NCBI GenBank assembly: GCA_008632985.1
Contig: QPGO01000007.1
Location: forward strand, 496,001-560,000
DNA from: Psammoneis japonica
Lineage: Eukaryota
Reading direction: 5' to 3'
Length of the DNA: 64,000 nt
Notes under the pieces: generated by a model
Seen by the model: only the letters and a program-made list of their open reading frames with translations
Told to the model about the DNA's origin: nothing
The model's database searches: none
In this document: positions 5,330 to 33,536 of the stretch, in pieces
Position numbering within the stretch: the stretch's first letter is position 1
How the letters are laid out: each line of letters starts with the position of its first letter
Made by a program: the position numbers and the translations under genes

Positions 5330-5530
5330 GATGTACGTACTGTACATAGGCCCTCTCTACTCTATGTAGAAGTAGAGGAACCTACTGTAGTGTACTCTTC
5401 ATAGCCCTCTCTAATAACTCTACCGGTACCTACTAGCTAGTAGAGAGTAGGGAGAGAGTGGGTAAAGACCTTACCAATTCTCTGTCTCTAGCTAGCTAAG
5501 AGGTTCCTGATGTCGATACCTGGCTACTTT
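5330..5530. promoter_or_regulatory. Very TpA-rich intergenic tract upstream of the coiled-coil gene
   Basis: Dense TAC/GTA/CTAG words (tacgtactgtacatagg...tacctactagctagtagagagtag); regulatory role inferred from position only. Confidence 0.35.
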
Positions 5531-5957
5531 TCTCTTCGCTGGTTGTTGCTGACGTTCGAGAGACTTGAGCAGCAAAAGCTGTTGTGCCTAGCTAGATCTC
5601 TAGTAGAGAGTTTGGACAAAGCCCAGAATTACAGCTGCTTTTATTACCGGCATGTGTCACTAGTTTGAGAAAGAACAATTTTATGCTTCACAGCTGAGAG
5701 CTCTCTTTGTCCAACCGCGACTCGCAGGTCTACTTGCATGCAGTGATAGTGGGTCCACGAGACGGGTAACTTGGTTGTTGGGGATTTATGCTGTTTGCGT
5801 AACCAAGAGCAGTCTCGCCCCTCCTGTGGGGCCATCATGAAATTTGAAAGTGTGTAGCGTCAGGAGGGTCTGGTAGGTGCAAAGGCACAGTGGAACCTTT
5901 CTACGGGAGGCGGGAAGACACAGCCGCTGCCAGCCCTTGTTATAAGACATAACACAC

Positions 5958-7600
5958 TCAGAGCTCGTCCGGCTCCCTCCCTTGCTTGGGCCAAACATCT
6001 TCTCCAGACTCTTCCCACAATGGAAGAGTGCAAAATAGCACAATGAGGAAGATCACGTACGTTAAGGTGCAGACTCGGAGGCTCCAGGTGTCAATCTTTC
6101 GGATGAGCTTGCGATTCGTGTTGACGTCGCGCTTGCTGTGTATCATGGCCTGTTTGAGCGTAACTGAAGATCGCATGGATTGTCCATACGAGAAACCGGA
6201 TCGACGCTCTGGTTGGACATCGAGCACGTCTCCATTCTCCTCCTTCTCTCTCAACTCGTCGTCAACAGTGTGAAGCTCCCCATTGCTAACTGTGTGCGGT
6301 CTTTTGTTCCGCAGCATGCTCAGCTTTTCACGACGCTCTTCTGCTTCCTGGCGAGCAGCATCGTGTCCCACAAAAAAGAGATACCCCACAAGGACCGACT
6401 CGAGCAAGCCAAACATGACCCAGTAGAACGATGAATTGATCAAGACAGTGGCGAACAGTCGTTCGTTCGTCACGGGCAGATACTGAGCAGTCACAATCTG
6501 GTGAGCCGCCAAGACCAACAAGAACATGCCAAAACTCAAAAAGGTGAAGAGTATGGCAGGAACGATGATCCCGACGACGTAAAAGCGGGTTGCCCGTTCA
6601 AAGTAGAAATCGTAGTACACCGCTGCCGGTGGATAGGTAGCATTCTCATTTGTCATGTAGCCTACCTTCACCATCGCTTGCTTTAGTCTATATTCAGCGT
6701 ATTTGGGTTGCATATCACTACCTACCGTAAACCCGCTGCCGTCTAGTAGGAGCATCTGTATTCGTGACGTCCAGGGTCCAATCATATATCGGCACCCTAA
6801 CGTGTCAAATGGCATACGCCTAAGCCCAGCAAATGCACAGAGAGCCTTGAGGCCTCCGTTCCGTCTCCAATACACAGTTCCGTCACTGTACACCCAAGCA
6901 AGTGCTTCGGGCATGTTCTGAGCGCCTACTGCTTGATTGTAAAGGTCAACGTCTGGAACCCATATTTCGGTGCGTTCGTTCGCATTAGATGCACGAAATG
7001 TCGTACTATACGCACAATGCTCATTCACATCCCACGCCAGCCGCTCATCTTTCCAAATCATGTGTAACCCAACGAAAATCTCCGTCGTCTGTTCCTGCAT
7101 GGAAAGTTCCGTGATGTGAAGGAAATCCAGTTGGAACTCCACTAAAACGGGTGCCGAGGGACTCGTCGTGTTTTCCGGTTGTACAGCGGGGTTATAGTTT
7201 GACAGCAGCTCTGATTGCAGCCTAGTTTCACATTCATGACGAGGGGGGGGCATCACAGCAAGCATGAAGAAATTCGCTCTTGAGTCCAAGACATTCCAAG
7301 TCATCCGGAGCGAGTCCCTCTGCGCGTAGATTCAAGTCTTGACAGGAAATTGCCTCTTCGGTCGCGTCTTGTGAATAGATATAAGGAGTCACCTCTGGGA
7401 AGAGGTGTAGTTTCCGCAAATCGAACACGTCTGCTGCAGCTCTCTTGGAAGAGTCGGATTGCGAGTGCGGAGAATTTGCTCGCGAATCCGTTCCATCGAC
7501 AAGGCGTTTCGCGCTATTCGGGCCGGCAATGAAAGCGACTGGCCATAACGTTGTCTTGGTCTATCCATAGCACGGGAAGGAGCTAAGCCGTCTGACGCTA
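5958..7600 (-). CDS. Cys-loop (pentameric) ligand-gated ion channel subunit; 5' part broken by apparent frameshifts, possible internal M1-M2 deletion
   Basis: ORF 5958-7304 has WKDERLAW, IWVPDVDLYN, Cys-loop CAFAGLRRMPFDTLGC, post-ligand-domain FYVVGIIVP and a C-terminal M4 helix. Upstream ORFs 7234-7428 and 7389-7730 appear to continue the N-terminus in other frames. 5' coordinate approximate. Confidence 0.8.
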
Positions 7601-8107
7601 GCAGGAGCGAAACAATAGCAGAGGCACCAGCATGAGCTTTCGCGTGGGTGCCCGCATTTGCTTTTCTCTCTCGATTTCTGGCTGATTTCTTTTGTTCCAT
7701 GCGGCCTCCTGGATTTCTGAAAGCGTTCAAATCAGATCACTTTGAATTGCTGTTAGAGGAGGTTGGGTGGCATGGTTCGTTATTCGACACCCGGAAATCA
7801 ATCTTTCCCATTATCCCTTGCCAGGATTAGACAGCAGTGGCGCCACATTATTACAATATTTTAAAGAACAGACTTGTAAATACAATTTCTCTAGTACGGT
7901 GCAAATACATACATTTATTGCTTTTATTGGTGAATCAGCTGATCAGCTATTCATGGATAGACATGAAATTTTTAAAACATTGCTTAGACATCATTTCCAG
8001 CGACTCGTAGATCAAGGTTGGCACGACGGACCATCATCAATCGATCATCAATCATCAGAGTCATCGATGACAAAGATGGATTGAAGGTTCTTTGAGAGAG
8101 GGAGCCG

Positions 8108-9774
8108 TTGTCGAATTCATCTCGCTTGTCGAATCGGATCCCTGCAAATGCGAAGCATCATCACAAGATGACGATGAAGCTGGATTTTGCCAGGCTCGTG
8201 TTTTGTGGACGAAAGCAAGAGTTGGGCTCCCTCATGGATGCTTTCGATTCGACTTGTCAGCATCCACCATGTGCATTTGTTGAAGGAGAGTCGGGATCAG
8301 GGAAAAGCGCAGTGACAGAAGAGTTTCGAAGGCGTCTGCCACCCAACACCTTCTGCTGCGGCAAGTTTCTTGACGAGGGAAGGGATGCTTCTGAACCATT
8401 TTCTGCTGTTGTGGATGTCGCGCACATGTTGGCGAAGAGTCTTGTCAAAAGTGATGAGGCCGATTTGTTGAAAGAAAGGATCCAAAATGCTCTGCAATCT
8501 GATGTTCTCATTGTTGAAAGTGCAGTTCCCTGTTTGTCTGAATTGCTGAACGATGGCAACAAACCAGCCGAGATCCGAGAAGAAGCAGTGGCATCACAGA
8601 AGGGGCGGGCCTTTGACAGGTTAAGATTTGTGCTCAGAACGTTCTTGGCTGCTGTTTGCCTTGAAAGAAATGTTGTTTGTGCACTCAACAACATCCAGTG
8701 GGCTGGAATGGGTTCCGCCACTGTCATTGAAGCACTCCTGGAGAATTCTCAAGCAACAGCGCCTCGCAAGTTGATGTTCTTTGGCGCACACCGACCACTG
8801 ACTGTGCACGCTCATGTTGAGCAAATTGTTGAGAGACAAGGAGCCACAACTGTCAAGCCAAGCAGTCTGCCACACAGGAGATCTTGAGGTGACTGGTTTC
8901 CGTGCTCCTTTGAAGAGGCGACGATGAGGTGGGAGACCTCGCTGATGTCGTTCACCAGAAGACTGGAGGCAACGCTCTCTTCGCGGTGCAGTTCTTGCAA
9001 CTGTTGGAGCAGAGGGAACTCATGTGCTGTTTGACAACAAACTGTCATTGGGAATGGCACACAGATTGTGTCATTTCAGAGACGGGTGTCTCCAGCAATG
9101 TTCTTGATTTTGTTTCGGACAAGATCCAGATGCTTCCACATGACCAGCAAGTTGCGCTGGTCAATGCTGCCTGCCTGGGACTCACTCAGTTTGACTCATT
9201 GACAGTCTTTTCAGCATTGTCACCCCTGGAAAGCAATTTGGGCATCTCGCGAGATGTTGAAACAGGAAACCTTGAAGACTTGAATGAGATTCTCGGTGCC
9301 GCCGTCGAAAGAGGTTTTCTCGAATAGATTCGTCCTGGAGCATTCAAGTTTTGCCATGATGAAATTCGAGAAGCATCTCATGTGATTCTTGCTGATGATC
9401 AGAGCAGGCACACGATGCATCTGTCAATCAGAAAGAAGCTGCAATTGCGTTTGACTGAAGTTTCAAAGGGGGCAAGTGTGGACATCAGGCCAGATGATCT
9501 CCTTTTTCAGACGGCAGGCCAGTTGAGTTCAGTTTCGTCTCTCATTGAACACCTCGAGGAGAGGGTTGATCTTGCAGAGATTGACTTTGAGGCTGCAGCC
9601 CGGGCAATGGAGAGAGCCTCCTTTTTCCCAGCTTTTGATTTCCTTGATGCGGCAGGGAATCTCCTGGGACAAGATCCATGGCTGGACAATCATGATCTAA
9701 TGCTCAAGATTGCAATCGCTAAAATGAGGTGCTGTTGTTGCTGTGGCCGTCTTGAGGCCAGGCAGTGCTGCTGA
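8108..9774 (+). pseudogene. Decayed AAA/STAND-type P-loop ATPase (AAA_16-like, as in Ser/Thr-kinase-ATPase-sensor proteins)
   Basis: FCGRKQEL, Walker A GESGSGKS, EPFSA, LNNIQW, KTGGNALFAVQFL; frameshifts and in-frame stop at 9325; no Tyr in the three ORF fragments; TpA-depleted. Confidence 0.75.
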
Positions 9775-9924
9775 GTGGCCACTGCCAGCAACCAGCTGGC
9801 AGCCAGTGGAGCAAGCAGCCAGAGCTGCCATTGCCCTCTGCCAGCCAGCTAGAGAGGGCTGCCGGCATCAGTTTGTTGACATGTCAAGCAGTGGCCACTG
9901 CAGCATGGGCTGCTCTCTTTGTCT

Positions 9925-10880
9925 GGTTGCTGATGCCAACACCTGGCCACTTTTCTCTTTGCTGGTTGTTGCTGATGTTCAAAGAACTCAAACAGGAAAA
10001 GCCATTGTGCCTGGCCAGATCTCTGGCTTGGGCAAAGCCCAGAATTGTGGCTGCTTCCATTGTCATCACGTGTCAACACTTTGAGAAGAAAGAACAATTG
10101 TGTTTCTCTGCTGAGAGCTCTCTTTGTCCAACTGTGCTGACTCGCAGGGCTTTTTGCGTGCAGTGAGAGTGGGTCCACAAGACTGGCAACTTGGTTGTTG
10201 GGGACTTTGGCTGAGTGGTGAAAGCAGTCTTGCCTCCCCCCATGGGCCATTGTGGAATTTGAATGTGTGCAGTGTGGCCTGGCAGGTGCAAAGGCATGGT
10301 GGAACCTTTTCACTGGGATCTGGAAAGACACAGCTGCTGTTAGCCAGCCCTGTTCTGGCATCAACACACTTGGAGCTTGTCCAGTTCTCTCCTTTGCTTG
10401 GGCCAAACATCTTTTTCAGACTCTTCCCACAATGGAAGGGTGCAAAAAATGGCACAATGAGAAATGTCATCATTTGTGTTGACACGCAGACTTGGAGGCT
10501 CCAGGTGTCAATCTTTTGGATGAGCTTGCAACTCATGTTGATGTCACACTTGTGGTGTGTGGTGTGTCATGGCCTGTTTGAGCAAGTGCAACTGCAGATT
10601 GCATGGATTGTCCACACAAGAAACTGGGTTGAAGATCTGGTTTGCCATTGAGCACTTCTCTGTTCTCCTTCTTCTTGCTCAACTCATCGATGACATTGTC
10701 AAACTCTCCATTGCTGGCTGTGTGGGCAGTCTTTCATTCTGCAGCCTGCTCAGCTTTTCACAATGCTCTGCTGCTTCATGGTGAGCAGCATCATGTCCCA
10801 CAAAGAAGAGATGCCTCATGAAGACCAACTCGAGCAAACCAAACATGACCCAGCAGAATGATGAGTTGATTGTGACAGTG
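9925..10880 (-). pseudogene. Hypermutated duplicate of the 3' half and 3' flank of the Cys-loop channel gene (matches ~5507-6450)
   Basis: Direct alignment: tggctacttt>tggccacttt, gcctagctagatctctag>gcctggccagatctctgg, cagtagaacg>cagcagaatg; peptide INSSFYWVMFGLLE>INSSFCWVMFGLLE. Confidence 0.9.
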
Positions 10881-10889
10881 CTCTTGATG

Positions 10890-13550
10890 CAAATTTTTTT
10901 TTCAGTCATCTCCCATCCATTGGTGTGACATCATGTGCAGAGTGTTCGATGTGCACAGCGCAGCCTGTTCTGCTGGGCAAAACCCCTCAAGTCCAAAACA
11001 AAGTGTCAAGTTGAGTCACAAGGAAGAAATCATGCACTTCATTTCTGCCACATTGTTGGTGCTGCATTTGTGACCCTGACTGTTGGCTCTTAACTTGTTC
11101 AGGAATGCATGCTGTGTCATCTTTGGCACCACCACCAAATGCACCACAAGAGCATTTCCTGCAGTTTTGGAGCTGTGAGTGGCAGTGCAACTGTGACTCC
11201 TCTTCTTTGCACTGTGCTTGCACTCTGCTTGTTCTTGTGTGGGTTCTGCAGCACAGCAGCTCTGTGACAACTGTTGCTGTCTCCATCTGGTCTGCTCAAA
11301 CCATCCACCTGTTGGGGGACACAACACAATTCAGGGCCCTGCCAGACACTGGACAAGAAGAATCTGAGTGAGCTGTGACTCTTTTCCAGGCAATGGCTGG
11401 TGTCTGATCATTTCAGGCTCAATGCAAATCATGACTTTGCTTCCTGAAGTGCATGAAAGAAAATAAAGTTGTGGTGAGACCACTTGACATTTGAGCATGA
11501 ATGATGCTTTTCAGTGAGATGCACATTGTCTCCAAAGTCAGCCATGGTTGCTGCTTTCTCCTTCTTTGGTTTCCACATGATGCACAAATCTGTCACAGGG
11601 CTTTCACCCACCATGGGGCCACAGCTTCCAAGCAAACCTTCTTTCCTCTGCCAATGCCTGCAAAGACCTTGATGGTGGGATGGTCTCCTTCTGGATTCAA
11701 AAAGACCGTGTCAGAGGCTTCATCTGGCATGAGAAAAATGGGGTCATTGTGAAGCTTTCCAAAAAGTTGAGGATGAACCTTGTTGACAATTGTGCAATTT
11801 TTTATGTGTGCAGCAATTGTGGATGTCATTGGCAAAAAACAACAACAGCATCAACAGCACCTGCAGAAGCAACAGCAGGAGTGACAGCATCAGGCATGTG
11901 CCAGGACCAAAATGCAGGTGTGTGGCATTTGAATTCATGACAGCATCTGTGGGAAGCAGCAGAGCATGGAAACAACAGTGTGAGTTTGCAGTGTCTTGTT
12001 TTGCATGAATGACACCCGCAAGAAATGGAGTGATGATGTTGCCTGTTGTGCCAGCATCAGTGTCAACAGTGTCAGCAGGGTTGGTGTTCTGCAAAGGCAC
12101 AGGTGGCGAAAAATCACAGTGCATCATCATGGCAGTTGAGTCACATTGATGTGTGCTTTTTTTGTGGTTGAGAGAAAGGGGAAAATTGTTCTCTGCCACC
12201 CTTGGTTTCAAGCAACTTGGGATTTTGGGGGTGCTGTGTGTGAGATGGGAGCTCTCACTTGATCACATGCACACAACATTTGCAACATTGTGGACATGTC
12301 CCACTCAATGCATGTGGTGATGTCATCACATGTGCCATGCACAGCCACATCCCATTGTGCCACTTGCAAAGGGGTGGACTCAACAGGCATGGGCAGTGTC
12401 CACACCCACATGTGCATCAAAATGACACCCAAATGAGTTCAACTGTCTGATTTGAATTTGCACTTTGAAGTTGTTCATCTGTGATGATCTTCAGTGCCAA
12501 CGCAGCAGACCCCCACTGAAAAAAAAGAAAGATGGAACTGCAGTCATTCTGTCAACAGCTGCAGTGTTTGGCTGGAGCACGCGGTTGCACCTCAAGCAAT
12601 GAACTGTCCTCTGTTCCCCAAATCTTGCAGACAAGTGCACAGCTTCCTCAGATCTGAGACATTGCAGGCACAGCTTTTCTCTTCACATCAGCCTGGCCAC
12701 AGCAATGACAGAAGCTTTGCAAAAAAAATCAAAAGAAAATGGAGCAGGTGTGCTGCAGGCCTGGGTGTCAAACCTGGCATGTGAGAATGAGAAGTTGTGT
12801 GGAGATGTCTGAGGTGGCATGGGGGGCGGGGGGGCATGTGTGGAGGAGCAGCAGACTGCACAGCATGGTTGTTGGTGTCAGATCCAGGGTTAGAGCAGGT
12901 GCAAGCCTGAGTGATGGATGCAGCACAGCAGGTGTGTGGTGCTGCAACAATGGCTTTGCTTGGCTTTGCAACAAATGATGGCGCACAAGAGCACACGGGG
13001 TGGCTCTCATTTTGAGTTGATTGAAATGATGAGTTGATGGCTGTGTGTCAAAATCTGACATTGCATTGTGGCCCTTCTTGCAGCATCACAAATCTGATGT
13101 TGCCCCATGATTGGTGCAGTGCCATGGCAAAACAGCAGCAAAAATCTGACACTGCATTGATGGCAAGCTTGTGCAGCTCAATGTGCTTGCTGTTGTGTCT
13201 CTGTTGACAAGAGATGACTCATTCACTGAGAGCAATGAGTGTGACTGTGTCTTGGTTTTGGGACAAGATCAGTGTTCTCTGAACTCAAATGTTCACTTGG
13301 CAAAAAAATGCACACGCCGTTCTTGTTGAAAGGCCAGGTGCGCAGACAGATCACAAGAAAGAGGAGCTCTTCTCAAGGCGCACGGAGCACTGAAGAATGA
13401 CGGGGTGCACGTCTTTTCCATCATTGGAGTCTTGGGCCTCATGCTTGTCCATCATGACAAGACACTCTAGACAAGTCCTTTGGATTTGAATGAAGATGGA
13501 AACCAAGCCTCAGTTTTGATGTCAGGCCCTGCAGCAGACGCCGGGTGCGA
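10890..13550. repeat. Heavily decayed repeat/TE-derived block, family not identifiable
   Basis: Nearly devoid of both TpA and CpG, strongly TG/CA-rich; only fragmentary ORFs; boundaries approximate. Confidence 0.55.
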
Positions 13551-13940
13551 GGACAGCACTTCCCATTTACCGGCACTAGAGACGGGAGACAGGCAAGTTC
13601 AAATTTTCATTCATTCAAAAAATAACCATCCATAAATAAAAGAAAGAATGAACATATGAATAGATTATTCTCATTTGAAACGATACAAGTTTCAACCTTA
13701 TTGTAAGAGGATAACATTCTACATGGCTTCAAAATATACATTGGAAGTTTTTCTTCACTTCTACTATGGTACAGCACGGTACAGTATGTACGTACTGTCC
13801 AGCTACAGTAGAGTATCGTACGAGTAATAAATTTCAAAATTTGAAAAATTTGTTCGAAATTGTTTCCATCAACCTCCACATTTCTCTTAAAGAGACTCGC
13901 AAGGGTTCTCGATATTACTTTTTTTAAAATCTTTATCATC

Positions 13941-15640
13941 ATGAAGTGGCTCCCTGTTGGATCTTGCGTCTTTGGTTTCATTGCAGTCGCTGCCGTTCTA
14001 TTCCTCGCATTTTATGACAAAAATGAAACGGGAGAGCAGGTACGCAAGGGTCGCAAACGCAGGATATGCCAAAAAAATTCAAGCGTCTAACGTCTAACTC
14101 CTTTCCCTCTACTGTACCGTATTCATCACCTAACTTTCCCTTCAACATAGAGCGAACAAGTAACCAAGGTTCAAGTAGCTCGCGGAAAGCACAATTTGTT
14201 TCGTGTGCGCGAGAAAAATACGAAAGACAAGGAGCTAGGAGAGAAAGCGCAAGAGGAAGCAGATGACATGCCATTGCCCGATGGTACAGCAGCAAAAATT
14301 GGTCCTGGAGTTCGTGAGTCGGTGCTTGATTCTACCAACCGGAACAGTATTACTTCCCGACAGGTCGTCGTTGCACTCCAAGCCCCCTCAAGTGGAAGCC
14401 TCGCTGAAAAGAAAGCGGAGATCAAACGCATGCAAAACAAGGTGCTTAAATCGCTGGGGGAAGGATTCACATTATTGTATGCATATTCGTGTGTCCCAGC
14501 AATTGCTGGCATCATACATTCCGAAGCAGCCGTTGATACGCTTGCCAGAAGTCATATTGTTAGAAGAGTTGACGTGGACATGGAAACATCCGGGAGCCTT
14601 ATTGACAGCGTGCCAGTCATTAATGCCGACAAACGACATGAGACTGGTAATCGTGGAAGCGGAACCACCATTGCGGTAATTGACTCTGGCATCGATACGG
14701 ATCATCCCAACTTTGCTGGTCGCCTTGTGCATGAAGCATGTTTTGACATTTTGGAAGAGGATCCCCGTTGTCCAAATGGTTTGATAGAGCAAGTCGGACC
14801 TGGTGCTGCAGAAGATGAAAACGGGCATGGCTCTCATGTAACAGTAAGTGATCACTACTTCTTATCAATCCTTATATGTCTGATTTCTCATGCTTTGTCT
14901 CTGTCGACTCTGTTCATCGAATCCAGGGCATTGCAGCTTCCAATGGGTCAGACGGAGGTGTTGGTGTTGCACCAGATGCTCAGATTGTTGCTCTTAAAGC
15001 CACCTTTGGCTCTACTGGCACCGGTACTGGTTCCGTTGCATCATTTATTGCTGCGTTGAACTATATCATGGACAATCCTCAACTGAACGTGAAGGTTATC
15101 AACATGAGCGTTAGTAGCGGTTTGTTTTCTGGTGTCTGTGATGACGCAGATGCCTTAAGAATGCTCGAAGCTGAAGCAATCAATGCTTTGTACGATGAAG
15201 GAATCATAACCGTTGCTTCAGCAGGAAATCAAAGAAGTTCTACGGAAATGTCAGCACCTGCGTGCCATGGTAACGTTATATCTGTCGCGGCGTCGGACAA
15301 CGATGATAATGCCGCAGACTTCACAAACAGCAACCAGTTCACCGACGTGTTTGCTCCGGGTGTCGGTATCGAATCTTCTGCACCAGGAAACTCACTAGCA
15401 AGGTTTAGCGGAACCAGCATGAGCTCTCCAATGGTAGCTGGCTGCGCTGTTCTATTAGCTGAGGCTGAGGAAGCCACTTCCCCACAAGAAATCAAGGAAA
15501 GGTTGACAAGTTCTTTTTCCACCGTGACGGTTCCAGCCAGTGGTCTAACTTTTCCCCGGCTCGACTGTGATATAATGATAGATCCTCCCCCAGAAACCCC
15601 CATGTCCTTCTCGTACCGGTATGACTGGCTTGAAATTTAA
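13941..15640 (+). CDS. Subtilisin-like serine protease (S8) with N-terminal hydrophobic anchor/signal; intron 14844-14926; apparent frameshifts in the 5' region
   Basis: Catalytic triad motifs VIDSGID, HGSHVT|GIAA (across the gtaagt..ccag intron) and GTSMSSP; oxyanion ASAGN; N-terminus MKWLPVGSCVFGFIAVAAVLFLAF in another frame. Confidence 0.85.
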
Positions 15641-16049
15641 GAAATTGTCTGTGGAAGAAGCGACCGAAATGATTCGAGATTTTGTGCCATCAAGCTTCAT
15701 AGCAATTTATGGAGCATCAGTGACAAGGATTCAGAGATGGCGCAACACCTTGATGCGCTGTTTTGTTGCGAGAGCAATGAAAGAACGCATGTTAGTTGTA
15801 ACATAGCTTTTGGCATTTTCAGTTTTTGCTAGAAACATCTGTGTTGCGCTACACAGAATTGGTTCTCTTAAAACCATTTGTTGTTTTCTTACTCGTCACT
15901 GAAATTTGCCATTCTCCCAAGGAGGAGATTTTGCAATGTGCGAAGTATAAAGAGGGTGCCCGCCGAAGGCGGCCCAGAAGAATAAAAGGAGAGGAAGAAA
16001 AGGGGAAGAGAGAGAGAAAAGAAACAGAAGGAGAAATGGAGAAAGGCTT

Positions 16050-19000
16050 CTGCTGGATTGTCAATTTGTGATTTTCAGGCTTCCAAGCAAAGTGGTCAAG
16101 CAAGATTTGTGTTGCAGCAGCTTGGTGTGTTCATGATTGGAGCACCTGTTGCTTGAAGGCATGGCAATGTGTCAGCAAATGACAAGCTGGGCATCATGCA
16201 TTTTGTGAGAGCTGCCCTGGGCAGTCATCCCCGGTTTGCAACTGTGTCATTTCCTGCCTCTGGCTGCAATCAGCATGTTTTTCTGCCATGCTCCTTGAGA
16301 AGCTTCTTGACATGTGATCATGGTCAAATCTTTCTGCCCAGGCCAAGCACACCTCCCACATTTCCATTGGACTTGCATGTTGACAGTCTCGTGCACTTGT
16401 GACATGTGGTCACAAAACTCACCATCTCTCAAGTTCTTTCCAAACACTTTTTGAACCTCAACTGCCAATCCAACAGCACTTTTGACTCCACAAGGTGTGT
16501 GTTTTGGAGTGCAGGAGCCATGTCCATCTTGCTCAACTTTTGATTCCATGCTTGTTGTCCATGACAAAAGTCAGAGGCAGGGGCGACATTTGTGTTGCTT
16601 CCCAAAGTGGCAACAGCAGCAGCAGGAGTCATGACAGCCATCGCAATGTTGGTGCTGGGTGTCAAAGCCATGCATCTCAAAGTAGCAATGGCAGCAGTGT
16701 GGGAGTCATGACAAGGCTGGGGCAGTGTTGGCACTCTGGGCATGAAAGCCATGACAGCAGCAATGAGAGCAGGGAAAACAGAAGCAGCAGGAGCATTGGT
16801 GGTGCCACAGCCATGGCAACATTGTTGCTCATCAGCTCCAAAAATGTGCATTCATTTGATGAGCCAACCACACCCACATCATGAGTGACAGCTCTTCTTC
16901 CACTTTTGCTTGTTCCTCATGAGTGCCACAACAGACCAGAGTGAACAGACATGAGTGCTTCACGCAAATGCCACTCAGTTGTGCAAGGGTTTGAAACTTT
17001 TAAGAGCTTCACAAGCTTCTTGTCTTTGTGACATTGAATTGTGTCACTTGGAGCCACAGCTTTTTGTTTGCAAAACCTTGTGACAACTGATTCATGTCTC
17101 ACACCAGATGCTTTGCATGTTTGTTGAAAGACTTGCCTTGCAATGTTGACCAAATTCTCACATTGTCTGAGTGCTCATCATCTGGATCAATCCCAAAGCA
17201 CAGCAACAGCAGCCTTTGCGAGTGTGTTTGTCATGTTGTCAGCCTCAGCCTCAGCTCCCCAGTGCTCTCCTTTCACCGGCTTTAGAGCACACAACCAGTG
17301 TTCATTCTCTTTGAAGGTTTCTTCAGCTCTGAGCTTTTCATCTGCTTTTTTCCATGTTGGCGCAGCATTTTTCAATTTCCTCTGCCATGGCACCTGCTTC
17401 TGGAACATGATTTGGAGTTTTGTCTTTGCATTTCTGGTGTTTCAGCTCAAGGGGGACCCCCCATTCCCTTGAACATTAAATGCCCTTGGTTGGACTCTTT
17501 CTGGAATGGCTCAAAGGCATGGATGCTGCTGGCTTCATCAAACTGAAGGCACTCCAACTTAAACAAGTTGGTGAGTGTGCAGTGCAGCTCATGGTCATGT
17601 CCATGAGCAGACTTGCAAACTTTCTTTTGTCTGTGCACATTGTCTTTTTGAAAGGCACCTCCTCCACACATGCCAGCACTGTGCAAACCAACAGGCTTTG
17701 CAGTCATTGCCCCCCCCCCCCCCACACACACACAGACAGCATGCACTGGAGTGTGCAAAATGAGGAACTCCTTCAATGTCAGTCTGCCCAAGTCATTCAC
17801 AACATTTGTGGAGAAAACAGCTGAGCTTTTGGGACAAGTCATCACTTTGCATCTGCACAAAAGCGCAGTTCAATGACATCACCACATCCACCAAAAACAA
17901 TCACTGAGGCATTGACTTTTTCTTCTGCATCTGGGTTGATCCCACCATTCTCTCAGCCAGATCAAATGTGGCATCCCACTTGATGCAAATCCCTGGTGAC
18001 TGGCTGAACAGACCCTGCTTGAGGCAAGGAAACATTGTGTTGAAGCAATGGTCAAAATGTTGTTTTTTGTTTCTTTTCATCTGGTTGTGAAAAGGTTTTG
18101 TTGCATCAAGCTACGATGAAATCAGAGCACTGTGCCCTGTCCGCATCTTCTTCACAAGAAAATTCATGCATGCCTTGATGGCTTTTGTTCTGTTCCATTC
18201 AAGAAATGCGGCATCTTTGAAGTCATGTCAACTTTCAAGATTTTGTTGCAAAGCTCCTTCATGACAAGCACTTCTCCATCCTTGCCATCTGCTGTGTCTG
18301 TTTCAACAAATTCAGAATGTCTTTCCTGCAGCTTCCATGGACTCCATGCCCAAGTTTCAGCCTCATGCACAGTGAAGGTGTGGGGAGTGGCAAGATCCAT
18401 GCCATCACCCACCACTGTCTTGGGATTTCCAGTGCAGGCAGGTGTTGTTGCTGCAATTTCCAATTGCAGACAAGACAGGCATGTTCTGCACTTGCATCCA
18501 GCCATGGTGCATGCAGAGTCCTTCTTGTGGCCAGTCTTGTCATCATGCAACCATCATTTGTTGACAATGCAATTGAGTTGTTGACAGTGTGTTGATGGCC
18601 TTAGAGAAGCACTCAACATCTTGTGTTTCAGGATGAGAGTCAGGCCAGCTCACAAAATTCCCTGAGCCCACCCTCTGTGTCAATTGCGCATGGCCATTTC
18701 TGCTTGCTGTCTTCCACAGAATTGATTTGTGCTCCCTGTTTTTTGCAAAGCTGAAGGCTTTTTATTTTGTCAATTTGAGTGACAAAAATTGGCCCAGGCA
18801 GCAGCACATTCTCCAATGTTTGCAGAATGCACCCCAGGGCAAACAAGAGCCAGTGTGATTTGAGCACATGAACAAGTTCACACAACCACAAAACATGGCC
18901 TCTTTGGCCTTTCTGTTGACAGTCATTGGCACACTCACAACCTGACTTTTTGCTGCAGAACTTGCACCTGGAATTCTGTGGGCCCATTGTCACACAGATT

Positions 19001-20560
19001 CCCACCTGCATCTGAAAAAGTTGCCAGGAAAGAAGATGGGTTCAGCAAGGGTGCTGATGACACCCAGAATGAAAAAGGGCACAAGTTGTCTGTGGTGGTG
19101 CCAATGGAAGGCACCAAAGACTGTGGCATGTCTTGAAGAACCAACATTGGCAGTTCCCATTGGGCTGAGCAAGAAGAAGCAGATTGGATGATGAAGTCAA
19201 AATGCAATGAGGTTGGGCATGATGTGAGAAAAGATTGCCCTGACAATGACCACTCATTGACAGAGTCAGATGGTGTGGGCCATCAGAACCATCAGAGCAG
19301 TCAACATGGTGTTGGGTGGCATGGACTTCAAGTGTCATCCTCCTGTGCTTGATGTGCATGAGGCCAATCAATTGACAGCTTGTGTGAAGGAGTGGCTGTG
19401 TTTGAACATTGAGGTTGGAGGCATTTTTCCAGGACAGACAGAGACAAAGTTGCAGGATTGTGGACAACATGGCAAGTTTGCACTCACAACTCAGGTTGAG
19501 TTGCAGGTCCTCTTGTGCTCTCTTTTGAGCTTCTGACCTGGTTGACATGGTGACAGTGGCTGACAGGAACAGCAATGTGTTTGCAAGCCACACCGCGGTG
19601 AGCTCAGAGATGCTGGCAAGACCAGACATGTGCTCATCAGCAAGAAGCTTTGAAGCTTCAACAGCTCAGGTCTCCTTTCCCTGGTGAGTGTGAATGCAGC
19701 ATGACATCACAGTGGCATGTTCCTGGCAACTCTGGCAAAATTGACTTGGGTTGAGTTGCGGGTCTTGTGCTCACTTTTTGGCTTCTGCACCCGGTTGACA
19801 TGATGGCAACAGCAGTGGACAGCAACAGCAATGGTGTGTTTGAAAGCCATGTGGTGAGTTCAGAGATGGCAAGACCAAATGTGTGCCAGTCAACAAGCCG
19901 CAAAGCTCCAACAGCTTGGGTCGCCTTTGCCTGGTGCGTGTGAGTGCATCATGATCTCACGGCGGCATGTTCCTGGCTGGCAAGATTTTTTGTCAGTGTG
20001 TCAGCATGGTGACACTGGCCATTGCACTGTCTTGGTCTGTTCATGGCGCAGGAAGGAGCCAACCTGTCTGACATTGGCAGGAGTGCAACAAGCAGAAGAG
20101 CCAACCATGTGTTCTCAAGTGGTGGTTGCCCACCGCGTTCTGTCAATTTCTGGCTGATTTCCACTGCACTGTTCCCCAGCCTCCTGGAGATCTCCCAAAA
20201 ACTGCTCAGCTCAACTTGAGTTTTTGTTGGAACTGGGAACACCCACAGGGCATTCTTGATGGACACCATCAGAGAAGGTTGCGTGGCGTGGTTCGTGCAG
20301 TGGTCTGCCGGCACACATGCATTGAATCCCACATGACCCACTCAACTCAACAGTTTTGGCAGAATTGGCCAGACTTTGACCCCCCAGCCAGAGCCACAAA
20401 ATGCGCAAGATGTGAGCATTGTCTGTCTTCCACCCTTTAAAACAACATCTGGCAAGAATGGAGTGGGGCAGTGTGCATTGTTCATGGTGTCGGGCATTTG
20501 AAAATGGAGCTGATGTTTCGCGGAGCACCTTCATCACACGTGAAAGCATGAGGGACGATT
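16050..20560. repeat. Heavily decayed repeat/TE block, including a ~260-bp degenerate tandem duplication around 19480-19980
   Basis: TpA and CpG nearly absent; repeated segment gctcagagatg..gcaagacca..aacagct..ggtc.cctt..cctggtg.gtgtga.tgca.catga at ~19600 and ~19860. Confidence 0.55.
20010..20195 (-). pseudogene. Hypermutated paralogue of the 5' end of the Cys-loop channel locus (matches ~7530-7715)
   Basis: ggtctatccatagcacgggaaggagctaag (7558) vs ggtctgttcatggcgcaggaaggagccaac (~20034); shared tttctggctgatttc and gcctcctgga. Confidence 0.7.
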
Positions 20561-22990: not shown

Positions 22991-24129
22991 GGTAAAGTAG
23001 GAAGGAATTGCTGTTACGGTTAAGGTGGTTTTTAGGATTTTGTTTTGAAAATGTTGTGAGAAAAGCAGGAAGAAATTTTTCATTCGCGGGTTCCCATTCG
23101 TGCATCGAGTCGTCCAGTCGTGACCTCAAAATGAAATTCGAGAGCAAAACGGGAATCACATCAAGACTGGCAGGAGTCGTCCAAACGAGCAAGCCTGCTT
23201 TCTCGACTGCCGAGACGATTCTTCAGTTTGACACGAAACGTGAATTCACGAACAAACCCAAAAGCAAAACTCCTGCGGTAAACCTTGGAATCGCCCTCTC
23301 CAACCATGCCTCTGTGCACATGTCCAAAATCCAACGAAACCCCGGCCTTTCCTCCACACCGCCTCGACCGTCTCTGTCCACACCCCAGGTGCTCCCTTTT
23401 TCACCGCCTTCCTCCCGTCTCGCTTCCCACCCTTCTAACCACCTCACACACAACTCTGCAATTCCTTGAATTCCTGGCTCCTGCTTAAGGTGTCATGCAA
23501 AGACTTGTGTGCTGTTGCTCGTGGGCCGCAGAAGCAGCACCAATTCTGCGACAAGTGGAGTGAGTGGGGAGCAAAAATTTCAAGCGGCGTCATTTCATCA
23601 ACATGTGGAGCATCACAAAGAAAGAGTGTCAAAGTGTCTCAAGCACACATGGGCAAGAAGGTTGGGGGGAGGGGTCAAACTGCGCCTCACACCAATGTGT
23701 TGAAGATGTCATCAGATTTCCTCCAAATCACAAAACAGAAGGTGTCAGATTTTAAATTGTGACATCTGTCTGCAGACACAATGGTGTGAGATGCAGCTTG
23801 ACTGTGACACTCAATGTCTGCTCTTGATGATCTTTCCATGCATGCATGGTTTGTTGGTCTTGCAAAGAACATCATCATAACTCAGCTCCTTCTCAAAGTT
23901 GTGCATCTTGTCGAGTCCTGGGAAAATCTTTTCAGAATTTCTGCAGGATTCACTGTGCCATGAACAGAAATTTCACCGCCGGTTTTGGTCACGGATGAGT
24001 GCAATGATTTTGCACTTTTTTCTGCACAACATCTGGCAAAAAATTTGCACAGCACTGCATGAATCCTCTGCAGAAAGATCCGCTGTTTTTGGCTGCCACC
24101 TTAAAAACTTGCAGCAGGGCAGCCACAAT

Positions 24130-24766
24130 GGGGTGTTGACCACGAATCACAAAGGAGCTGCCACAAAACTCTCTTTCACACTTTCAAAACCAAGAAGCTG
24201 TGTTTGCTGCGGCCAGCAAAACAAGAAGACCCGCACACCTGACAAAGACATTTGCAAGCTTTTGCACTTTGTCAGTGCATGTGCCTCACAACTTTGCAAA
24301 GACGCATCAAATGCAAAACAACAGCTCCCCACCATGCTTTCTTGCAAAAAAGTGCTGCACAGCATTGACATTGTTGTCAATGACAGTTGGCTGCCTCAAT
24401 GCCCATGAAGTTCCTTGGGCCCAACAGGGTGCCATCTTCAAGCTGGCACACAAAAACTTTGGTGGTGAGACACTTCTTGGCAAAACGATCTTTCCTGTGG
24501 AAGGAGGGGCACATCTCTCCCCTTTGAAAAGGTTTCAAAAAATGTGCTCTGCAAAGCAGTGCAGGTTTCCTCCATGTGCTGCTGGCTCTGCTGCAATTGT
24601 TGCCAGACAACAAACACAGGTTGCAGAGATTGTGCTGTGCAACAAGCAGTGGTTGGCAGACAACTGCTGCAACCCAGACAGTCAAAACACGAGGGTTGTT
24701 GCACCCAATGAACTCCACAAGCAGAGGCAGTGTCACACCAAGTAGATGCAGCTGCAAAACTCTTGG
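24130..24766 (+). pseudogene. Inverted, hypermutated paralogue of the 22461-22990 gene, interrupted by the Copia element
   Basis: DVCKLSYF vs DICKLLHF; LIGKTIF vs LLGKTIF; QTEVAKIMVCTREWLRKYYYKP vs QTQVAEIVLCNKQWLADNCCNP. Confidence 0.75.
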
Positions 24767-25011
24767 TGACAGGATTTGAACAAGATTTTAGTTTGTCACA
24801 CATGATCATGTGTGCTCTCAGCTCTGTGTGCATCGCACGATGCAGTTTGCTTTCGAGCCACACGGCTCACAAGAACAACAACAGCAGCGCCGACATCACA
24901 ACACCAGTCTTTCAGCTCCTGTGATGGTCTCTGCACGGAGACTCATCTGCCATTTAGACAGCAGCAAGGAGTTGTTGTTTTCTTCCACCCAGTCATCTTC
25001 ATTTTCTGTCA
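24767..25011 (+). repeat. Copia 5' LTR
   Basis: Colinear, indel-free match to 31425-31669. Confidence 0.95.
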
Positions 25012-25814
25012 GATTAACAGTCTTGCTCTTTGTTGTCCATTGAGCGTTCATCATCGTCATCGAGAAATTTTTGATGACGCGCACCGTTGGTGGTGGAAGC
25101 ACATGTCTGCCTTCTTCACTGCTGGACACTGGATTAAATCTACACGTTTGGATTTATCCAATGCCTCCCATCGTTGGATGTGTTCATTCAACGGACATTT
25201 GTTTGACCAGGAATTCCCGAATTCTCAGACATCTGAGATTCCGGATTCCTTGCAGCGGATCCTGCCAATCCATCTGCTCGCGTCCACGCGCACACGACAC
25301 AAACCCTTGACTCTGGCCCTGCTCTACACACGCCAAGTCCATCGCCTTGCATCTGCACCAGATTGCTGGTCTTCTGCAGTCCTGCAAGGTCCATGAGGAC
25401 AACTGTGAGAGGAAGGAGCAGTTCGTGATCACAGCCTGCGTTGAGGCGAGGGTGCATTTCCCACATTTGTTCATCCCTCCACAGCGCCAAATTTGGCCGG
25501 CCTGATCGGGTCATCCAACTGATGTAAAATGAGAATGGTTCAGAGGTCTTGTCCACCTCTGGTTGGCTTGTCAGCAGGGGTTTTTAACCCGTTGCTCTGC
25601 TCTCAGGCAACCCAAAGCGTCGCCAGCTGCGGGTTTGGACGTGCCGGCACAACTCTGCAGACCGGACAGGAAGCTCAGCACTCAACTACGAATGGGACAT
25701 CACAGCCCAGCAGCTTCTGACTCTTGAGATGGTTCAAGACATCAAGTCAAGATTCAAGTCATTTCAAGCTCACCCTCTGACTCTAGCTGGTTCCGACATC
25801 CACCCAGTTGCAAC

Positions 25815-28800
25815 ATGGTTCTCACCAGGCAACAACAAATCGATGGCCTCAAGCACATTCTAGGCACTGTTCTGAATCAAGCCGCAGACAGTCCATTGCG
25901 CTCCGCTCTCAACATTGATGGAGCTGATTTGCATCAGGACCTTTTTGCTTTTACTCTGACACAACTGGATGCCCTTGTGTGCAACGATGGCACCAATCAG
26001 ATGCCCTTGCCACGTGGTTACAAAGCACAGACAGCTGCGCTGATTAGCCTGTGCACGGTGAAAGCGCACGGCGGCGCGGATGTCAGCAACAACCCTCAAT
26101 TGTTCACTCACGAGGAGTTCACTGACTGTCGTCTTAGTCCTGAGCATGCAGCATCCCTCTCCATGGGTGCAGCGCCATCTGCTCCCACCCCTGGCTCTTT
26201 GCCACCCAAACCACGTGACCCTGTACGTGACTTTAAACGAGGCATCAAACGCGACCCACTCACCTTCGCGACTCTCAAGTCAGACAAACAGTGGCACATG
26301 TGGCACACCTCCATCATCGCACAGGCCCGCTCCCAGGACATCGAACTTGTTCTTGATCCAAAGCACAAGCCCTCTGCAGCTGAGGTCAAGGCCCTGTTTG
26401 ATGAACAACAGAAGTGCATGTTCGCCGCATTTGAACGGATCTTGCAAAATGACAAAGGCAAGGCGCTTGTTCGTCAACATGTTGGCTCCTCTGATGCTCA
26501 AGCGGTGCATCGTGACCTTTCCAAGTGCGCCCTCACTTCTGCTCGCGCATCCCTGGAGTCCTTGACCCTTCTCACGTACCTCACCACTGCTCGCCTTGGT
26601 GATGGCACATGGAAGGGATCCACCCATGCCTTCACACTTCACTGGCAGGACCAGCTCCGCAAGTGTGAAGCTCTTGTCCTGGGTGCGGACCATTTCTCTG
26701 CTGGCCAGAAACATGTCATGCTTGAGAACGCCGTCCATCCCATCGAAGAACTCCGTTTGGCAAAGAATCAAGCTGATCAGTTCTGCACGCAGAATGGAAA
26801 GGGTCTCTCTTACGAAGAGTGCTGTGGACTTCTGCTTTCTGCTGCAGCACAGTGCGACAGCACGTTCACCCCCAAGACCACTCCTTGCACTCCACGCTGT
26901 GCCATCTACGAACATGACCTGGTTCCCAATGACCCTGACGATGATGCATTCTTTGACATCGACAGTGATGTTGACATCATCCAAGCTTGTGCTGCACAGA
27001 CAAGCAGCAACTCCCTCACCAGGGAACAATGGCGTCGCATTCTGCCGGACCATCAGCGCATTTGGGACACCTTGCCCCAGTCCACCAAGGCCATCGTTCT
27101 TGGCTCGCGCAGTGCCCACACCGGCAACTGCCATGACTCGACGATGGTCAACCTGCACGACCTCCGTCTTGGCAGCAACGGCGATGTCAACTTGTCTGCC
27201 AACACCCATGATCTTGCATCGGAACTCGCACCATCTGACGCTGCCACCGACATGGCCGATGCTAACCCCATCCTCGCCCATCTCACGCGGCGCAAGCCTT
27301 TGCCACCCGGCAATTTGCAATGCCTCCTGGCACCTGAATGGCCCCCCTCCGCCTGCTCTGGTGAGAACCCCCCAGATCTACACCTTCTGTCCACTCCGAC
27401 AAGAAATCCAATGGATCTGTGTCCTTCCACACCGCCAACACTGACACTGAGCTTGACGGTCATAAACACCATTGCATCAACAACCACAATGTCATCCACT
27501 CTGCCTCGACCCACAAGTCAACTCGCAAAGGTGCTCTCGTGGATCGTGGTGCAAACGGCGGCATCGCCGGTGATGATGTTTGTGTCATTGCCCGCACTGG
27601 TTGGCAGGTTGATGTCCAAGGTGTCGATGATCATCAACCAGTCGACATTCCCATTGTCACTGCCGGTGGTGTCATCCACACGCAATGCGGCCCTGCCATT
27701 GCCACCCTTCACCAGTGTGCCTGCACTGGAAAGGGGAAGACGACACACTCTTGCGGCCAGCTCGAGTGGTGCAAACACGACGTCAACAATCGGTCCATCA
27801 AGGTTCCCAATGGTCTGCAGCGCATCACCACCATTGATGGATGTGTCACCCCCATTGACACCAAAGCCGGCCTCCCGCACATTGCCACATGCCCGCACAC
27901 CCACGCCAAATGGGACACTCTGCCGCATGTCATTCTCACTGGTGATGACACATGGGACCCATCTGTCCTTGACCACCAGTTCACCGATGATGAAAAGTGG
28001 TGTGATGCCATGTCTGACCTCCAAGACGACCCGACCACCAACCTCTTTGATGAGTTTGGCAACTGTCGTCACCGCCACATCGTCAACAACGCCATGCTTG
28101 CCGACTCCGTCCTTGGTGATCACCTGCTCCTGACATCTGATCTCTTCTGTGAATGCCATGAGCACGAACTCCATCCCAAGGATCCCGACTTTGAGTCCCT
28201 CCACCCTCACTTTGGCTTTCTCCCGAAGGACACTGTTCGCTGCACTTTCGATTGTACGATGCAGTGCACCTGCATGCCAGCCAGCACGCACCTGAAAAAG
28301 GTGCACAAATCGCCCAACCCGGCTCTCAACGTCCACCAACGTAATGAACCCGTTGCTGCCGACATGGTCTGCTCCGACACCCCTGCCATTGACTCTGGTT
28401 GCACCAGCACCCAGCTCTTTGTCGGCACGGAATCTCTCGTCACTGACGTGCATGACACCAAAACTGACAAAGAATTTGTCAACACCCTCGAAGACAACAT
28501 TCGCAATCACGGTGCCCTGTCCAAGCTCATCAGCGACCGTGCTCAGGTTGAGATCAGCAACAAGGTTCTTGGCATCCTTCATGCCCTCTTCATCTCCAGT
28601 TGGCAAAGCGAGACTCACCACCAGCATCAGAATTTTGCTGAACGCCACTGCCAAACTGTGAAGACCATGGCCAACACTGTCATGGATCGCTTTGGGTCCC
28701 CGGCTTGCACCTGGCTGCTCGCCATGATGTGCGTGTGTTTTGTGCTCAACCACACGGCGTCCGCCAAGCTCCACTGGCACACCCCCACCGAGGTGCTGTC

Positions 28801-31420: not shown

Positions 31421-31424
31421 GGAG

Positions 31425-31669
31425 TGACAGGATTTGAACAAGATTTTGGTTTGTCACACACAATTGTGTGTGCTCTCAGTTCCGTGCGTGTCGCGCGATG
31501 CAGTTTGCTTTCGAGCCACACGGCTCACAAGAATGATGACAGCAGCACCAACATCACGACACCAGTCTTTCAGCTCCTGCAATGGTCTCTGCACGGAGAC
31601 TCATCTGCCATTTAGACAGCAGCAAGGAGTTGTTGTTTTCTTCCACCCAGTCATCTTCATTTTCTGTCA
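31425..31669 (+). repeat. Copia 3' LTR
   Basis: Match to 24767-25011; followed by TSD CTTGG. Confidence 0.95.
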
Positions 31670-33536
31670 CTTGGAGCAAGCAGTGCTGCTTGAAGTCCAT
31701 TGCCAACACTGTGAATGCTGCAAAGTTCTCAACAGGTGTTTCACAGGTGCCAAAGGTCATCCTGCAATGAGCACACCTCTCTGAGTGCAAAGCCGTTTTT
31801 GTTGCTGATGGCTGTGTGGTGACAGGGGGGAAACATTGAAGGACCCCAACACAAGCATTCAGCCTGTTGCAACTGTGACTTGTGCACTCATTCCTGCAGC
31901 TGCAATGTTCATGACAAGGGGCACCCTTCCAGCAAAATGCTCTGAGTTGGATCCACCCCCGAGTGTCTTTTGCTTCTTCAGGACGAAGAGCAAGGCACTG
32001 GCTCTGGCAAGACCACCCGCTGCAGGAGCCCAAGAAAAGCAGTCAAGGACATTCCTTTTGCATTGGCCACTCTCGTCAGTGGCACCAAAAAGGTTCGTGA
32101 GGACCAGCCTGTCTGCTTCAAGGGAGTGGGTGACCCAGGTTGGAGTTGGAGCCACCGGGCAAGTTGCAAAGGTCATGCGGGGGCAATCGGTTGTTGTGTG
32201 GTGGCGACGGACGCGCACTTGGAAGCACCCAAGGATTTGCAAGTCTGTCAGGATGTGCAAGCTCCGGTGCAAATCTACGCATGAGCCTGTTGCCATGCGT
32301 GGTGCGAACACCGTAAAAATTTGTGCTGCGTTTTGCAGCAGTCTGCGCAGGGCTTCTGACGGGACGAACTCATCATTTGCAAACAACCATGTGCAAATGT
32401 CACAGATGCCTCGAAGACAAAACGTGATGGAGGGGAGAAAACAGACGGCACACGAAACGTGATGGATGGAGGGGGGACAACAGATGGCACGAAATGTGAT
32501 GGTGGCCACCGTGGATGAAGACAGAGATGAAATGGCTTCAAATGTGGCAGCTCTAAAATCTGCCACCAATTGCCAATCAACCCAATGACTGATTGATTGT
32601 TGCAACGATGAGTGACGATGCATGCTGCTGCAGTTTGCCAAATTGTCATGTGTTTCGACAAGCGCTGATTCACGCTGATGATCCACTTTGGGGTTGCCCG
32701 CTGGCAAGGACACGCGTGACGCAAAACACACGATGCAAGCGTCTCGTCCAAAGCATTGTCCATTGCTTGAAGCCCAAGAGAAGCACCAAAATTTTGTGCA
32801 TTGCCCCTCATCACTGGCCAAGAACAAAAAACAAGACACCACCTAGATGGGAAAGACAGAGATGGAGAATGATGTTGTTAGTTTGTTTGTCATGCCGGCA
32901 CTGCAAATGCATGATGCATCAATGCTGCTTTAAATGTGAACATGCCTTTCTTTGGCACACAGCCTCAAGAGTCATCTGCACAACATTCCAGCCTCCTCGC
33001 TCACATTCCAATCGCATGCTTTCCACGTCACCAAGATTTGCCCCAGTTTTCGGTCCCCGAACAAGGGAGCACTGCTGACCGGCACTCGGTGAGGTCATGG
33101 ACGTCAATGTCCAACCCATTGCACATTGCAGCTGTCATCATTCGTGAAAGCATCAACTGCAGCTTGCTTGGTTCAGTCCAAAAGAGAGCGCAGGACACAC
33201 CACAGCCCCGCTCCGACACAAGGAAGAACATGAGTTGAAAAGAAATGGTGTCGACACCGACACGAAACTGTGAGATGTTGTTCGTCCGCAGGGGTGATGC
33301 ATTGCTCAACAGCTTCTCTGTGTGAGTTACAAAGACGAGCATGTCAAAGAAAATGAGTGAGATGCCGAAACAACAGCACAATTTAGTTCGATTGCGACAG
33401 AGAGCGACAATGAGTCTCGAACCGTGGTGTCAATGCAAAATCCTTTTTTCACCTTGCAATTGGCCGCTTGCCTTCGAAAAAGCAACACAAGCTGTTTGAA
33501 TGTGAAGGCAAAGACTGGTGGACAGCATTGGTGCTG

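Follow-up and report, generated by a model that had tools for sequence, protein, structure and literature searches.

A TpA-free duplicate of a Cys-loop channel gene, and the domains that hold it, point to TpA-specific DNA hypermutation in Psammoneis japonica

The window analyzed here is a stretch of 64,000 nucleotides from the Psammoneis japonica assembly (contig QPGO01000007.1, positions 496,001 to 560,000 of the forward strand), numbered from its first letter. Near its left end lies a gene for a Cys-loop channel, gene A, whose main open reading frame occupies 5958..7331 on the minus strand. To its right stands a damaged duplicate, copy B, from which the dinucleotide 5′-TA-3′ (TpA) has almost disappeared. 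The depletion is not confined to the duplicate. Five TpA-free domains together account for 39,552 bp of the window (62%) and contain 193 TA, an observed-to-expected ratio (O/E) of 0.08, against 947 TA and an O/E of 0.58 in the remaining 23,969 bp examined, with 479 bp (35516-35994) placed in neither set of this comparison. Domain 1 (8009..13467) has 10 TA in 5459 bp and domain 2 (15984..20437) has 8 in 4454 bp, both at a TA O/E of 0.03, with CG O/E values of 0.28 and 0.12, respectively. Domain 3 (23034..35515; TA O/E 0.09, CG 0.60) contains a copia element and domain 4 (35995..48871; 0.10 and 0.70) a gypsy element, and domain 5 (50976..55255; 0.12 and 0.72) contains an open frame of 957 amino acids with 0.1% tyrosine and without a Pfam match.

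The borders of these domains are abrupt. TA density steps within 100 bp at 8008, 13468, 15983, and 20438: TA dinucleotides are spaced 10-20 bp apart up to 8008, and their normal density returns from 13468. Both sharp edges of domain 1 fall in gene-flanking DNA. Across the borders, TG and CA rise from O/E values of 1.15 and 1.20 outside to 1.64 and 1.65 inside, and GC content from 47.6% to 50.1%, with AT, AA, TT, and the other dinucleotides alike on either side. General GC pressure and biased gene conversion are ruled out as explanations for this pattern, since the frequencies of AT, AA, and TT are unchanged.

The direction of the change can be read from the duplicate pair. An earlier note on this DNA had described an intact channel gene beside a mutated copy, and the alignment it described is real by both BLAST and MAFFT. 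The parent segment, 5502..6450 on the minus strand, comprises the 3′ flank or untranslated region (5502-5957) and the last ~164 codons of gene A; it aligns with the left fragment of copy B, a 956-bp pseudogene piece at 9925..10880, also on the minus strand. The two agree at 748 of 930 aligned columns (80.4%) and otherwise differ by 138 transitions and 44 transversions, and identity reaches 91% once both sequences are collapsed to purines and pyrimidines. All 28 aligned TpA of copy A are altered in copy B (13 to CA, 11 to TG, 2 to TT, 1 to GA, and 1 to TC), compared with 246 of 845 dinucleotides that are neither TA nor CG, an excess with a Fisher p of 3e-15; the four TA>TG/CA examples that the note quoted are all present. 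Many CG had likewise been said to read TG or CA, and 36 of the 43 CpG of copy A do so (21 TG, 15 CA), with 3 kept. In all, the aligned part of copy B retains a single TA and six CG. The parent segment, at 31 TA in 949 bp, has normal TpA, and the claim that only one copy was hit stands.

Polarity was settled against outgroup proteins. The shared coding part contains 59 residue differences, at which the closest relative of gene A (P0001; 66-70% identical to the open frame) agrees with copy A at 29, with copy B at 2, and with neither at 28. Tyr303, Tyr317, and Tyr425, encoded by TAC or TAT in copy A, are tyrosine in five or six of six outgroups, and their counterparts in copy B are TGC, CAT, and CAA. 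The outgroup agreement together with the conserved tyrosines indicates that TA is the ancestral state, that TG and CA are not, and that copy B is the mutated copy. This upholds the TA>TG/CA polarity proposed earlier; the outcome named in the note as its refutation, TG/CA being ancestral, is not what the outgroups show.

Copy B continues well beyond its left fragment. At 20014..20172 on the minus strand lies a second piece, in the same orientation and order as 7538..7700 (minus strand), the 5′ end of gene A including an upstream ATG. This right fragment is 68-72% identical to its parent, or 88% after A/G and C/T are collapsed, and has no TA where the parent has six. The colinearity of the two fragments implies that the duplicate was split: the 1.1 kb coding for most of the protein is gone, and 9.1 kb stand there instead, among them a compositionally normal island that carries a subtilase gene. 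What remains of copy B is a dead channel-gene duplicate in two pieces. Its left fragment is present at single-copy depth in a separate sequencing run (X1), probably of the source sample.

The parent itself is less healthy than the word “intact” suggested. Its TpA content is normal, and the open frame of 457 amino acids matches Neur_chan_LBD in Pfam with E = 1.8e-26 over profile positions 1-214 of 216. Its relatives include proteins named by source as diatom (Fragilaria crotonensis, Eucampia). However, in the region 6480-6560 the gene lacks 16 residues of the M1-M2 loop and the start of M2 that are present in six of six homologues; Neur_chan_memb was not found in gene A by Pfam, and the pore-lining M2 is not intact. 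Upstream, at 7331-7389, two in-frame stops interrupt the counterpart of the Cys-rich N-terminal region of the homologues. Gene A may be a decaying or re-started gene, though it is covered by a cDNA-like contig. That contig, from a run labelled “DNA?” (X2), spans 5673-7840 in a single piece. Elsewhere the run skips two introns: an X2 contig joins 20785-21277, 21426-21506, and 21600-21652 of a histidine-phosphatase gene, omitting two GT..AG-ended stretches. X2 therefore behaves like cDNA, and gene A is probably transcribed. X2 cover is absent on 8438-12875 and 13510-20483, the subtilase island included, a blank that is no evidence of silence; a further run, X3, gave no cover. The stretch 5330-5620, which separates the upstream gene's promoter from the 3′ end of gene A, is TA-rich and contains many short palindromes (CTAG, GTAC), and a half-depth cluster of six variants sits at 5356-5364.

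A duplicated piece of which one partner is heavily mutated naturally recalls repeat-induced point mutation (RIP), the frame in which the earlier note had placed it. A RIP-like explanation would have the pairing of the copies set off the mutation, which then struck one partner only. In its favor, the mutated piece duplicates a gene ~3.5 kb away, and the other targets in the window are repeats and retroelements. The geometry is against it. Domain 1 exceeds the duplicated piece by 1.9 kb on the left and 2.6 kb on the right, the parent segment lies 1.6 kb outside the domain with its TA in place, and single-copy DNA that has no partner in the window is TpA-free as well (depth 66x in domain 1). A case in point is the AAA_16 (STAND-type NTPase) pseudogene at 8096..9774 on the plus strand of domain 1, which survives as three open-frame pieces, is broken by a frameshift and by an in-frame stop, and has no tyrosine in 548 residues. 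A full-library search returned 2102 matches for it at E up to 0.001, the best 39% identical; a close parent was found neither in that search nor in one among longer proteins, which came back empty. Tyrosine is frequent in only two columns of these relatives (Phe and His in the window), too few to use. Since neither copy B nor the AAA_16 pseudogene exceeds single-copy depth, unique DNA is hit when it lies inside a domain; and since the same TpA-free state extends over retroelements and repeats in 62% of the window, duplication is incidental. The mutated unit is the domain, not the duplicate. The note's suggestion that targeting follows the domain rather than pairing is borne out by the reach of the TpA-free stretch 8009-13467, far beyond the 956-bp piece and into unique DNA. 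Its supporting argument, that even the 3′ flank of the parent is spared, is correct as an observation but is weaker evidence than was thought: with a process working on the kilobase scale, lineages in which the domain of the parent gene was struck would be selected against, and the linked flank would stay clean along with the gene.

The chemistry is equally at odds with RIP. In ascomycete fungi, premeiotically and in hosts with a RID-type methyltransferase, RIP changes C to T, in Neurospora CpA to TpA, and thereby raises TA and AT content and creates stop codons; it needs a duplicated partner and mutates both partners. What the two have in common is the irreversible inactivation of repeated or mobile DNA by one transition class in one dinucleotide context, leaving compositionally skewed regions. 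Here the change runs in reverse, A:T to G:C at TpA: it removes TA rather than making it (O/E 0.08 versus 0.58, where RIP would give enrichment), cannot create stops, and slightly raises GC. Only one partner is mutated, unique DNA is included, and the named relatives of the channel are diatom proteins. The process is not RIP, and a duplication-triggered variant of it is quite improbable.

Retroelements in the window provide an independent record, because the two long terminal repeats (LTRs) of one element start out identical when it inserts. The copia element (RVT_2) in domain 3 lies at 24765-31669, with LTRs at 24765-25011 and 31423-31669 and a reverse transcriptase (RT) motif reading HVDD. 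The gypsy element in domain 4, with RT, RNase H, and integrase, lies at 42859-48005, with LTRs at 42859-43239 and 47625-48005 and the RT motif CIDD. The copia pair is 92% identical with 20-21 differences and the gypsy pair 86.5% with 51-53, the ranges arising from alignments one or two bases apart. After purine/pyrimidine collapse both pairs are 100% identical, over 247 and 381 bp. The differences thus amount to 74 transitions, with no transversion and no indel in 628 positions, and nearly all of them fall in pyrimidine-purine steps (19 of 21 mismatches in copia, 49 of 53 in gypsy). At 6 sites in copia and 19 in gypsy, TG in one LTR faces CA in the other, as expected if an ancestral TA was resolved independently in each; CG is largely kept. 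About 90% of the TA sites that can be inferred in the LTRs have been converted. Coupled with the complete lack of transversions, this would put the rate some three orders of magnitude above ordinary mutation.

The gypsy polyprotein carries the same mark. All 120 listed homologues have at least 2.9% tyrosine and the motif Y[IL]DD, versus 0.1% tyrosine and CIDD in the window copy. Tyrosine is shared by at least 70% of 60 homologues at 26 columns; there the window has Cys at 11, His at 11, Phe at 2, and Tyr at 2, although 394 of 502 other conserved residues are kept (p = 1e-13 for the tyrosine loss relative to these). Cys and His are the products of changing one strand or the other, and their equality here, like the 11 TG against 13 CA among the TA sites of copy B, argues that both strands are used equally. 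Taken together, the LTR and protein comparisons indicate that the change acts in place, on integrated DNA and on both strands.

This bears directly on the possibility that retroelement transcripts were edited from A to I by an ADAR- or ADAT-like enzyme before reverse transcription. Two of the targets are indeed LTR retroelements, and editing enzymes of this kind favor a U before the A, as noted in a recent preprint (Mettrop et al., bioRxiv 2026, 10.64898/2026.01.13.699255). Yet the two LTRs are copied from one template and nonetheless show TG opposite CA at 6 sites in one pair and 19 in the other, sense and antisense changes are equally frequent, the domains are larger than the elements, and sequences that are not retroelements are just as TpA-free, namely the AAA_16 pseudogene and the channel-gene fragment together with the flank on its 3′ side. 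Strand equality, the LTR result, and the non-retroelement targets rule out editing before reverse transcription as the source of the pattern, and we regard it as very improbable. Mobile elements in animals are subject to comparable deaminase-type hypermutation by APOBEC and ADAR, the latter with its preference for U before the edited A. These enzymes act during replication, on single-stranded cDNA or double-stranded RNA, and leave strand-biased changes that are fixed at integration. The changes described here arise after integration, are strand-symmetric, and extend to DNA that is not retroelement.

A more mundane possibility is that TA was never lost at all, either because base-calling errors at modified bases corrupted the assembly or because the domains are foreign DNA that always avoided TA. 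Modified bases can give systematic consensus errors, and some viruses have odd dinucleotide use. But contigs of the separate run X1 reproduce domains 1 and 2 at gene depth, with 0-4 differing letters per piece of 1.3-3.7 kb; the parent copy and the 120 homologues show that TA was once present and then lost; and the LTRs diverged after insertion. Neither version is any longer credible to a practical degree. The combined evidence demonstrates a TpA-specific, strand-symmetric, post-integration, and near-complete mutation of DNA in sharp-edged, repeat-containing domains that end beside normal genes.

A second, slower layer of change overlies the loss of TA. In domain 1 the CG O/E is V-shaped, falling from 0.93 at 8001-8500 to 0.0 at 11001-11500 and returning to 0.27 at 13001-13500, as opposed to a TA O/E that is flat at 0.03. 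The CG minimum at 11-12 kb sits at a high-copy repeat, 11608-12241. The retroelement domains keep a CG O/E of 0.60-0.72. Where X1 departs from the window at full depth within domain 1, at five positions, the change is always a CpG transition. The loss of CpG to TpG or CpA is a separate, slower layer of the kind expected from cytosine methylation. Ordinary decay of 5-methylcytosine would account for CG>TG/CA in the same domains, that is, for the 36 of 43 sites in copy B and the O/E values down to 0.0. It explains only the CG part, being graded and incomplete where the loss of TA is flat and complete.

Flanking bases also matter. TTAA is barely depleted in the domains (38, as against 36 in normal DNA, a per-kilobase ratio of 0.64), whereas ATAN/NTAT is nearly gone (28 versus 429, ratio 0.04; p = 4e-20). 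The changed A appears to prefer as its 3′ neighbor T over C over G over A (TAT > TAC > TAG > TAA), an order that is approximate. At the left edge of domain 1, a contig of X1 at roughly half depth (35.7 of 62.1) carries four linked variants between 7948 and 8009, namely 7949 A>G, 7958 T>C, 7986 A>G, and 8008 T>C. Each of them turns a TA into TG or CA, and no other TA lies as near the border, the TTAA at 7973 excepted, for which no variant is among those listed. This suggests an allele in which the domain is ~60 bp longer, and hence recent spread.

How might these layers fit together? The simplest candidate for an agent is an enzyme of the TadA/ADAT type, since the natural substrate of this type is an A preceded by U; it would deaminate adenine to hypoxanthine in DNA. 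Such an enzyme may be recruited by silent chromatin or by small RNAs nucleated by repeats. The silent state, to judge by the decay of CpG, would also be cytosine-methylated, and it would spread into neighboring unique DNA until an active gene stops it. Graded CpG loss against flat TA loss may then reflect one slow and one fast process at work on DNA not all of which entered the domain at once. Copy B would have been hit by virtue of its position inside the domain, and copy A spared outside it, lineages in which it was hit having been lost. Our preferred reading, to which we give a probability of roughly 80%, is that copy B lies in kilobase-scale domains undergoing TpA-specific DNA hypermutation, in which the A of 5′-TA-3′ is changed to G on either strand.

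Several observations weigh against this reading or limit it. Because an A>G change on one strand leaves the same letters as T>C on the other, the adenine side is not singled out by the products. The alternative that follows is a thymine-side route, with the same targeting, in which the T of TpA is modified, for example by hydroxylation to 5-hydroxymethyluracil by a TET/JBP-type oxygenase, so that the modified base or its repair would give T>C. As TpA is self-complementary, the products would be identical, and dinoflagellate DNA carries 5-hydroxymethyluracil preferentially at TpA and TpC. The sequence itself is neutral on the matter. No such mutagenic route is documented in the literature searched, and the U-A context of TadA/ADAT substrates, as set out in the preprint, offers a ready precedent for the adenine route (Mettrop et al., 2026); on balance the thymine-side route is unlikely. 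Within the hypermutation reading, both the deaminase and the route of its targeting are inferred. The residual TA from which the context ranking was drawn mix sites never hit with sites newly arisen, hence its approximate character. The half-depth edge variants, which come from contigs of the one run X1, could be an old allelic difference and not recent activity, and in normal DNA, too, X1 differs from the window by TA>TG at two or three positions. Finally, strand-coherent tracts were not found by runs tests on the copy A/copy B alignment (15 runs of 24, p = 0.86) or on the copia, gypsy, and third repeat pairs (p = 0.40, 0.34, and 0.38); there is therefore no sign in these pairs of a processive enzyme working along a single strand.

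The closest known counterpart is found in Bigelowiella natans. In mutation-accumulation lines of that species, two viral inserts gained mutations ~1000 times faster than the background; of 231 mutations there, 230 were A>G or T>C, all at TpA, and a homologue of ADAT2 is proposed, though not proven, as the agent (Mettrop et al., 2026). TpA-poor predicted genes are described there as enriched for reverse transcriptase and DDE domains, with a Rho of 0.45 for the main viral region and only 124 clusters of at least 3 kb genome-wide (Mettrop et al., 2026). At the level of sequence, the signature in the window matches this TpA hypermutation. A>G and T>C at TpA yield TpG or CpA on either strand, discrete kilobase-scale regions of foreign or mobile DNA are struck, and TpA is down with CpA and TpG up. 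There are also differences. B. natans is a chlorarachniophyte and thus a rhizarian, and the host here, to judge by the names on two homologues of the channel, is apparently a diatom, a stramenopile. Depletion here is near saturation (O/E 0.03-0.12) and takes in 62% of the window. LTR retroelements, repeats, and pseudogenized copies of host genes are struck instead of giant-virus inserts, and the rate, measured from new mutations in B. natans, is inferred from LTR pairs here. A CpG-decay gradient, a 3′-neighbor preference, proof from LTR pairs, and a parent/duplicate pair were not found in the preprint sections consulted. In the literature searched, a TpA-directed process appears only in the Bigelowiella preprint, and none was found on diatoms.

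Until now a TpA-rewriting defense was known from one report only, on a single chlorarachniophyte with a modest genomic footprint (Mettrop et al., 2026); the present case is apparently a diatom, is saturated, and comes with natural controls. A parent and a duplicate 3.5 kb apart show that the target is the domain and not the sequence, and the heterozygous edge hints that domains still move. One may venture further, at what we would put as somewhat less than even odds, that diatoms in general, or this one at the least, defend their genomes by a saturating, TpA-specific editing of DNA that is nucleated by repeats and creeps outward until it meets an active gene. Since the same signature occurs in a chlorarachniophyte, such a system would date far back and be spread widely across the SAR supergroup (stramenopiles, alveolates, and rhizarians). 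It would erase every tyrosine codon and every TAA or TAG stop in its path, constituting a second great class of mutational genome defense beside fungal RIP, with opposite chemistry, and a hidden cause both of the difficulty of annotating algal transposons and of the long open frames that survive in their dead copies. Were the pattern genome-wide, it would offer a diatom system for finding the enzyme and its guide, some diatoms being transformable and provided with methylome and chromatin maps. It would explain tyrosine-free, Cys/His-rich “orphan” open frames in annotations, supply a clock-like marker of entry into silent chromatin by setting fast TA loss against slow CG loss, and point to a natural A-to-G editor of DNA.

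The consequence for open frames is already visible in the window. As A>G and T>C cannot create stops and remove TAA and TAG, long open frames persist in dead elements even where the catalytic residues have been destroyed. Within 25728-35238 they run on both strands at once, for instance 27365-30235 on the plus strand against 27518-28900 on the minus strand, and gene callers would predict tyrosine-free, Cys/His-rich “orphans” there. An open frame in TpA-free DNA is therefore no indication of function. A Pfam search of 124 open frames, drawn from the unannotated stretches of the TpA-free domains together with normal DNA at 20438-23033 and 48872-50975 (within the block 48016-52357), returned one match only, the histidine phosphatase in normal DNA, and none in the TpA-free stretches. 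Below the Pfam cut-off of 22.4 bits, the TpA-free open frame at 36957-38165, with 0% tyrosine, has a weak SET-domain match (E = 3.9e-4, 21.2 bits) and may be another host-gene copy that was hit.

Repeats stand out by sequencing depth, which is 698x at 11608-12241 and 1300-1600x at 18582-20483, as against 55-70x elsewhere. The latter repeat lies at the right end of domain 2, adjoining the second fragment of copy B; it contains tandem units at 19487-19977, and X1 contigs join it in many alternative ways. Between domains 1 and 2, the normal island at 13468..15983 (TA O/E 0.60) carries the subtilase gene (Peptidase_S8) on the plus strand. In one X1 contig, 31 other letters stand between 13612 and 14736 in place of 1123 bp of this island, which may represent an alternative allele or a paralogue. 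The stretches of normal TpA hold the host genes: a repeat-rich protein, the channel, the subtilase, the histidine phosphatase, and TIR, Roc, and LRR proteins. The stretch 55414-63926 is an immune-type cluster with a TIR protein, a PapA_C condensation-domain protein, a Roc GTPase-TIR protein, and LRR repeats, and it starts directly where domain 5 stops.

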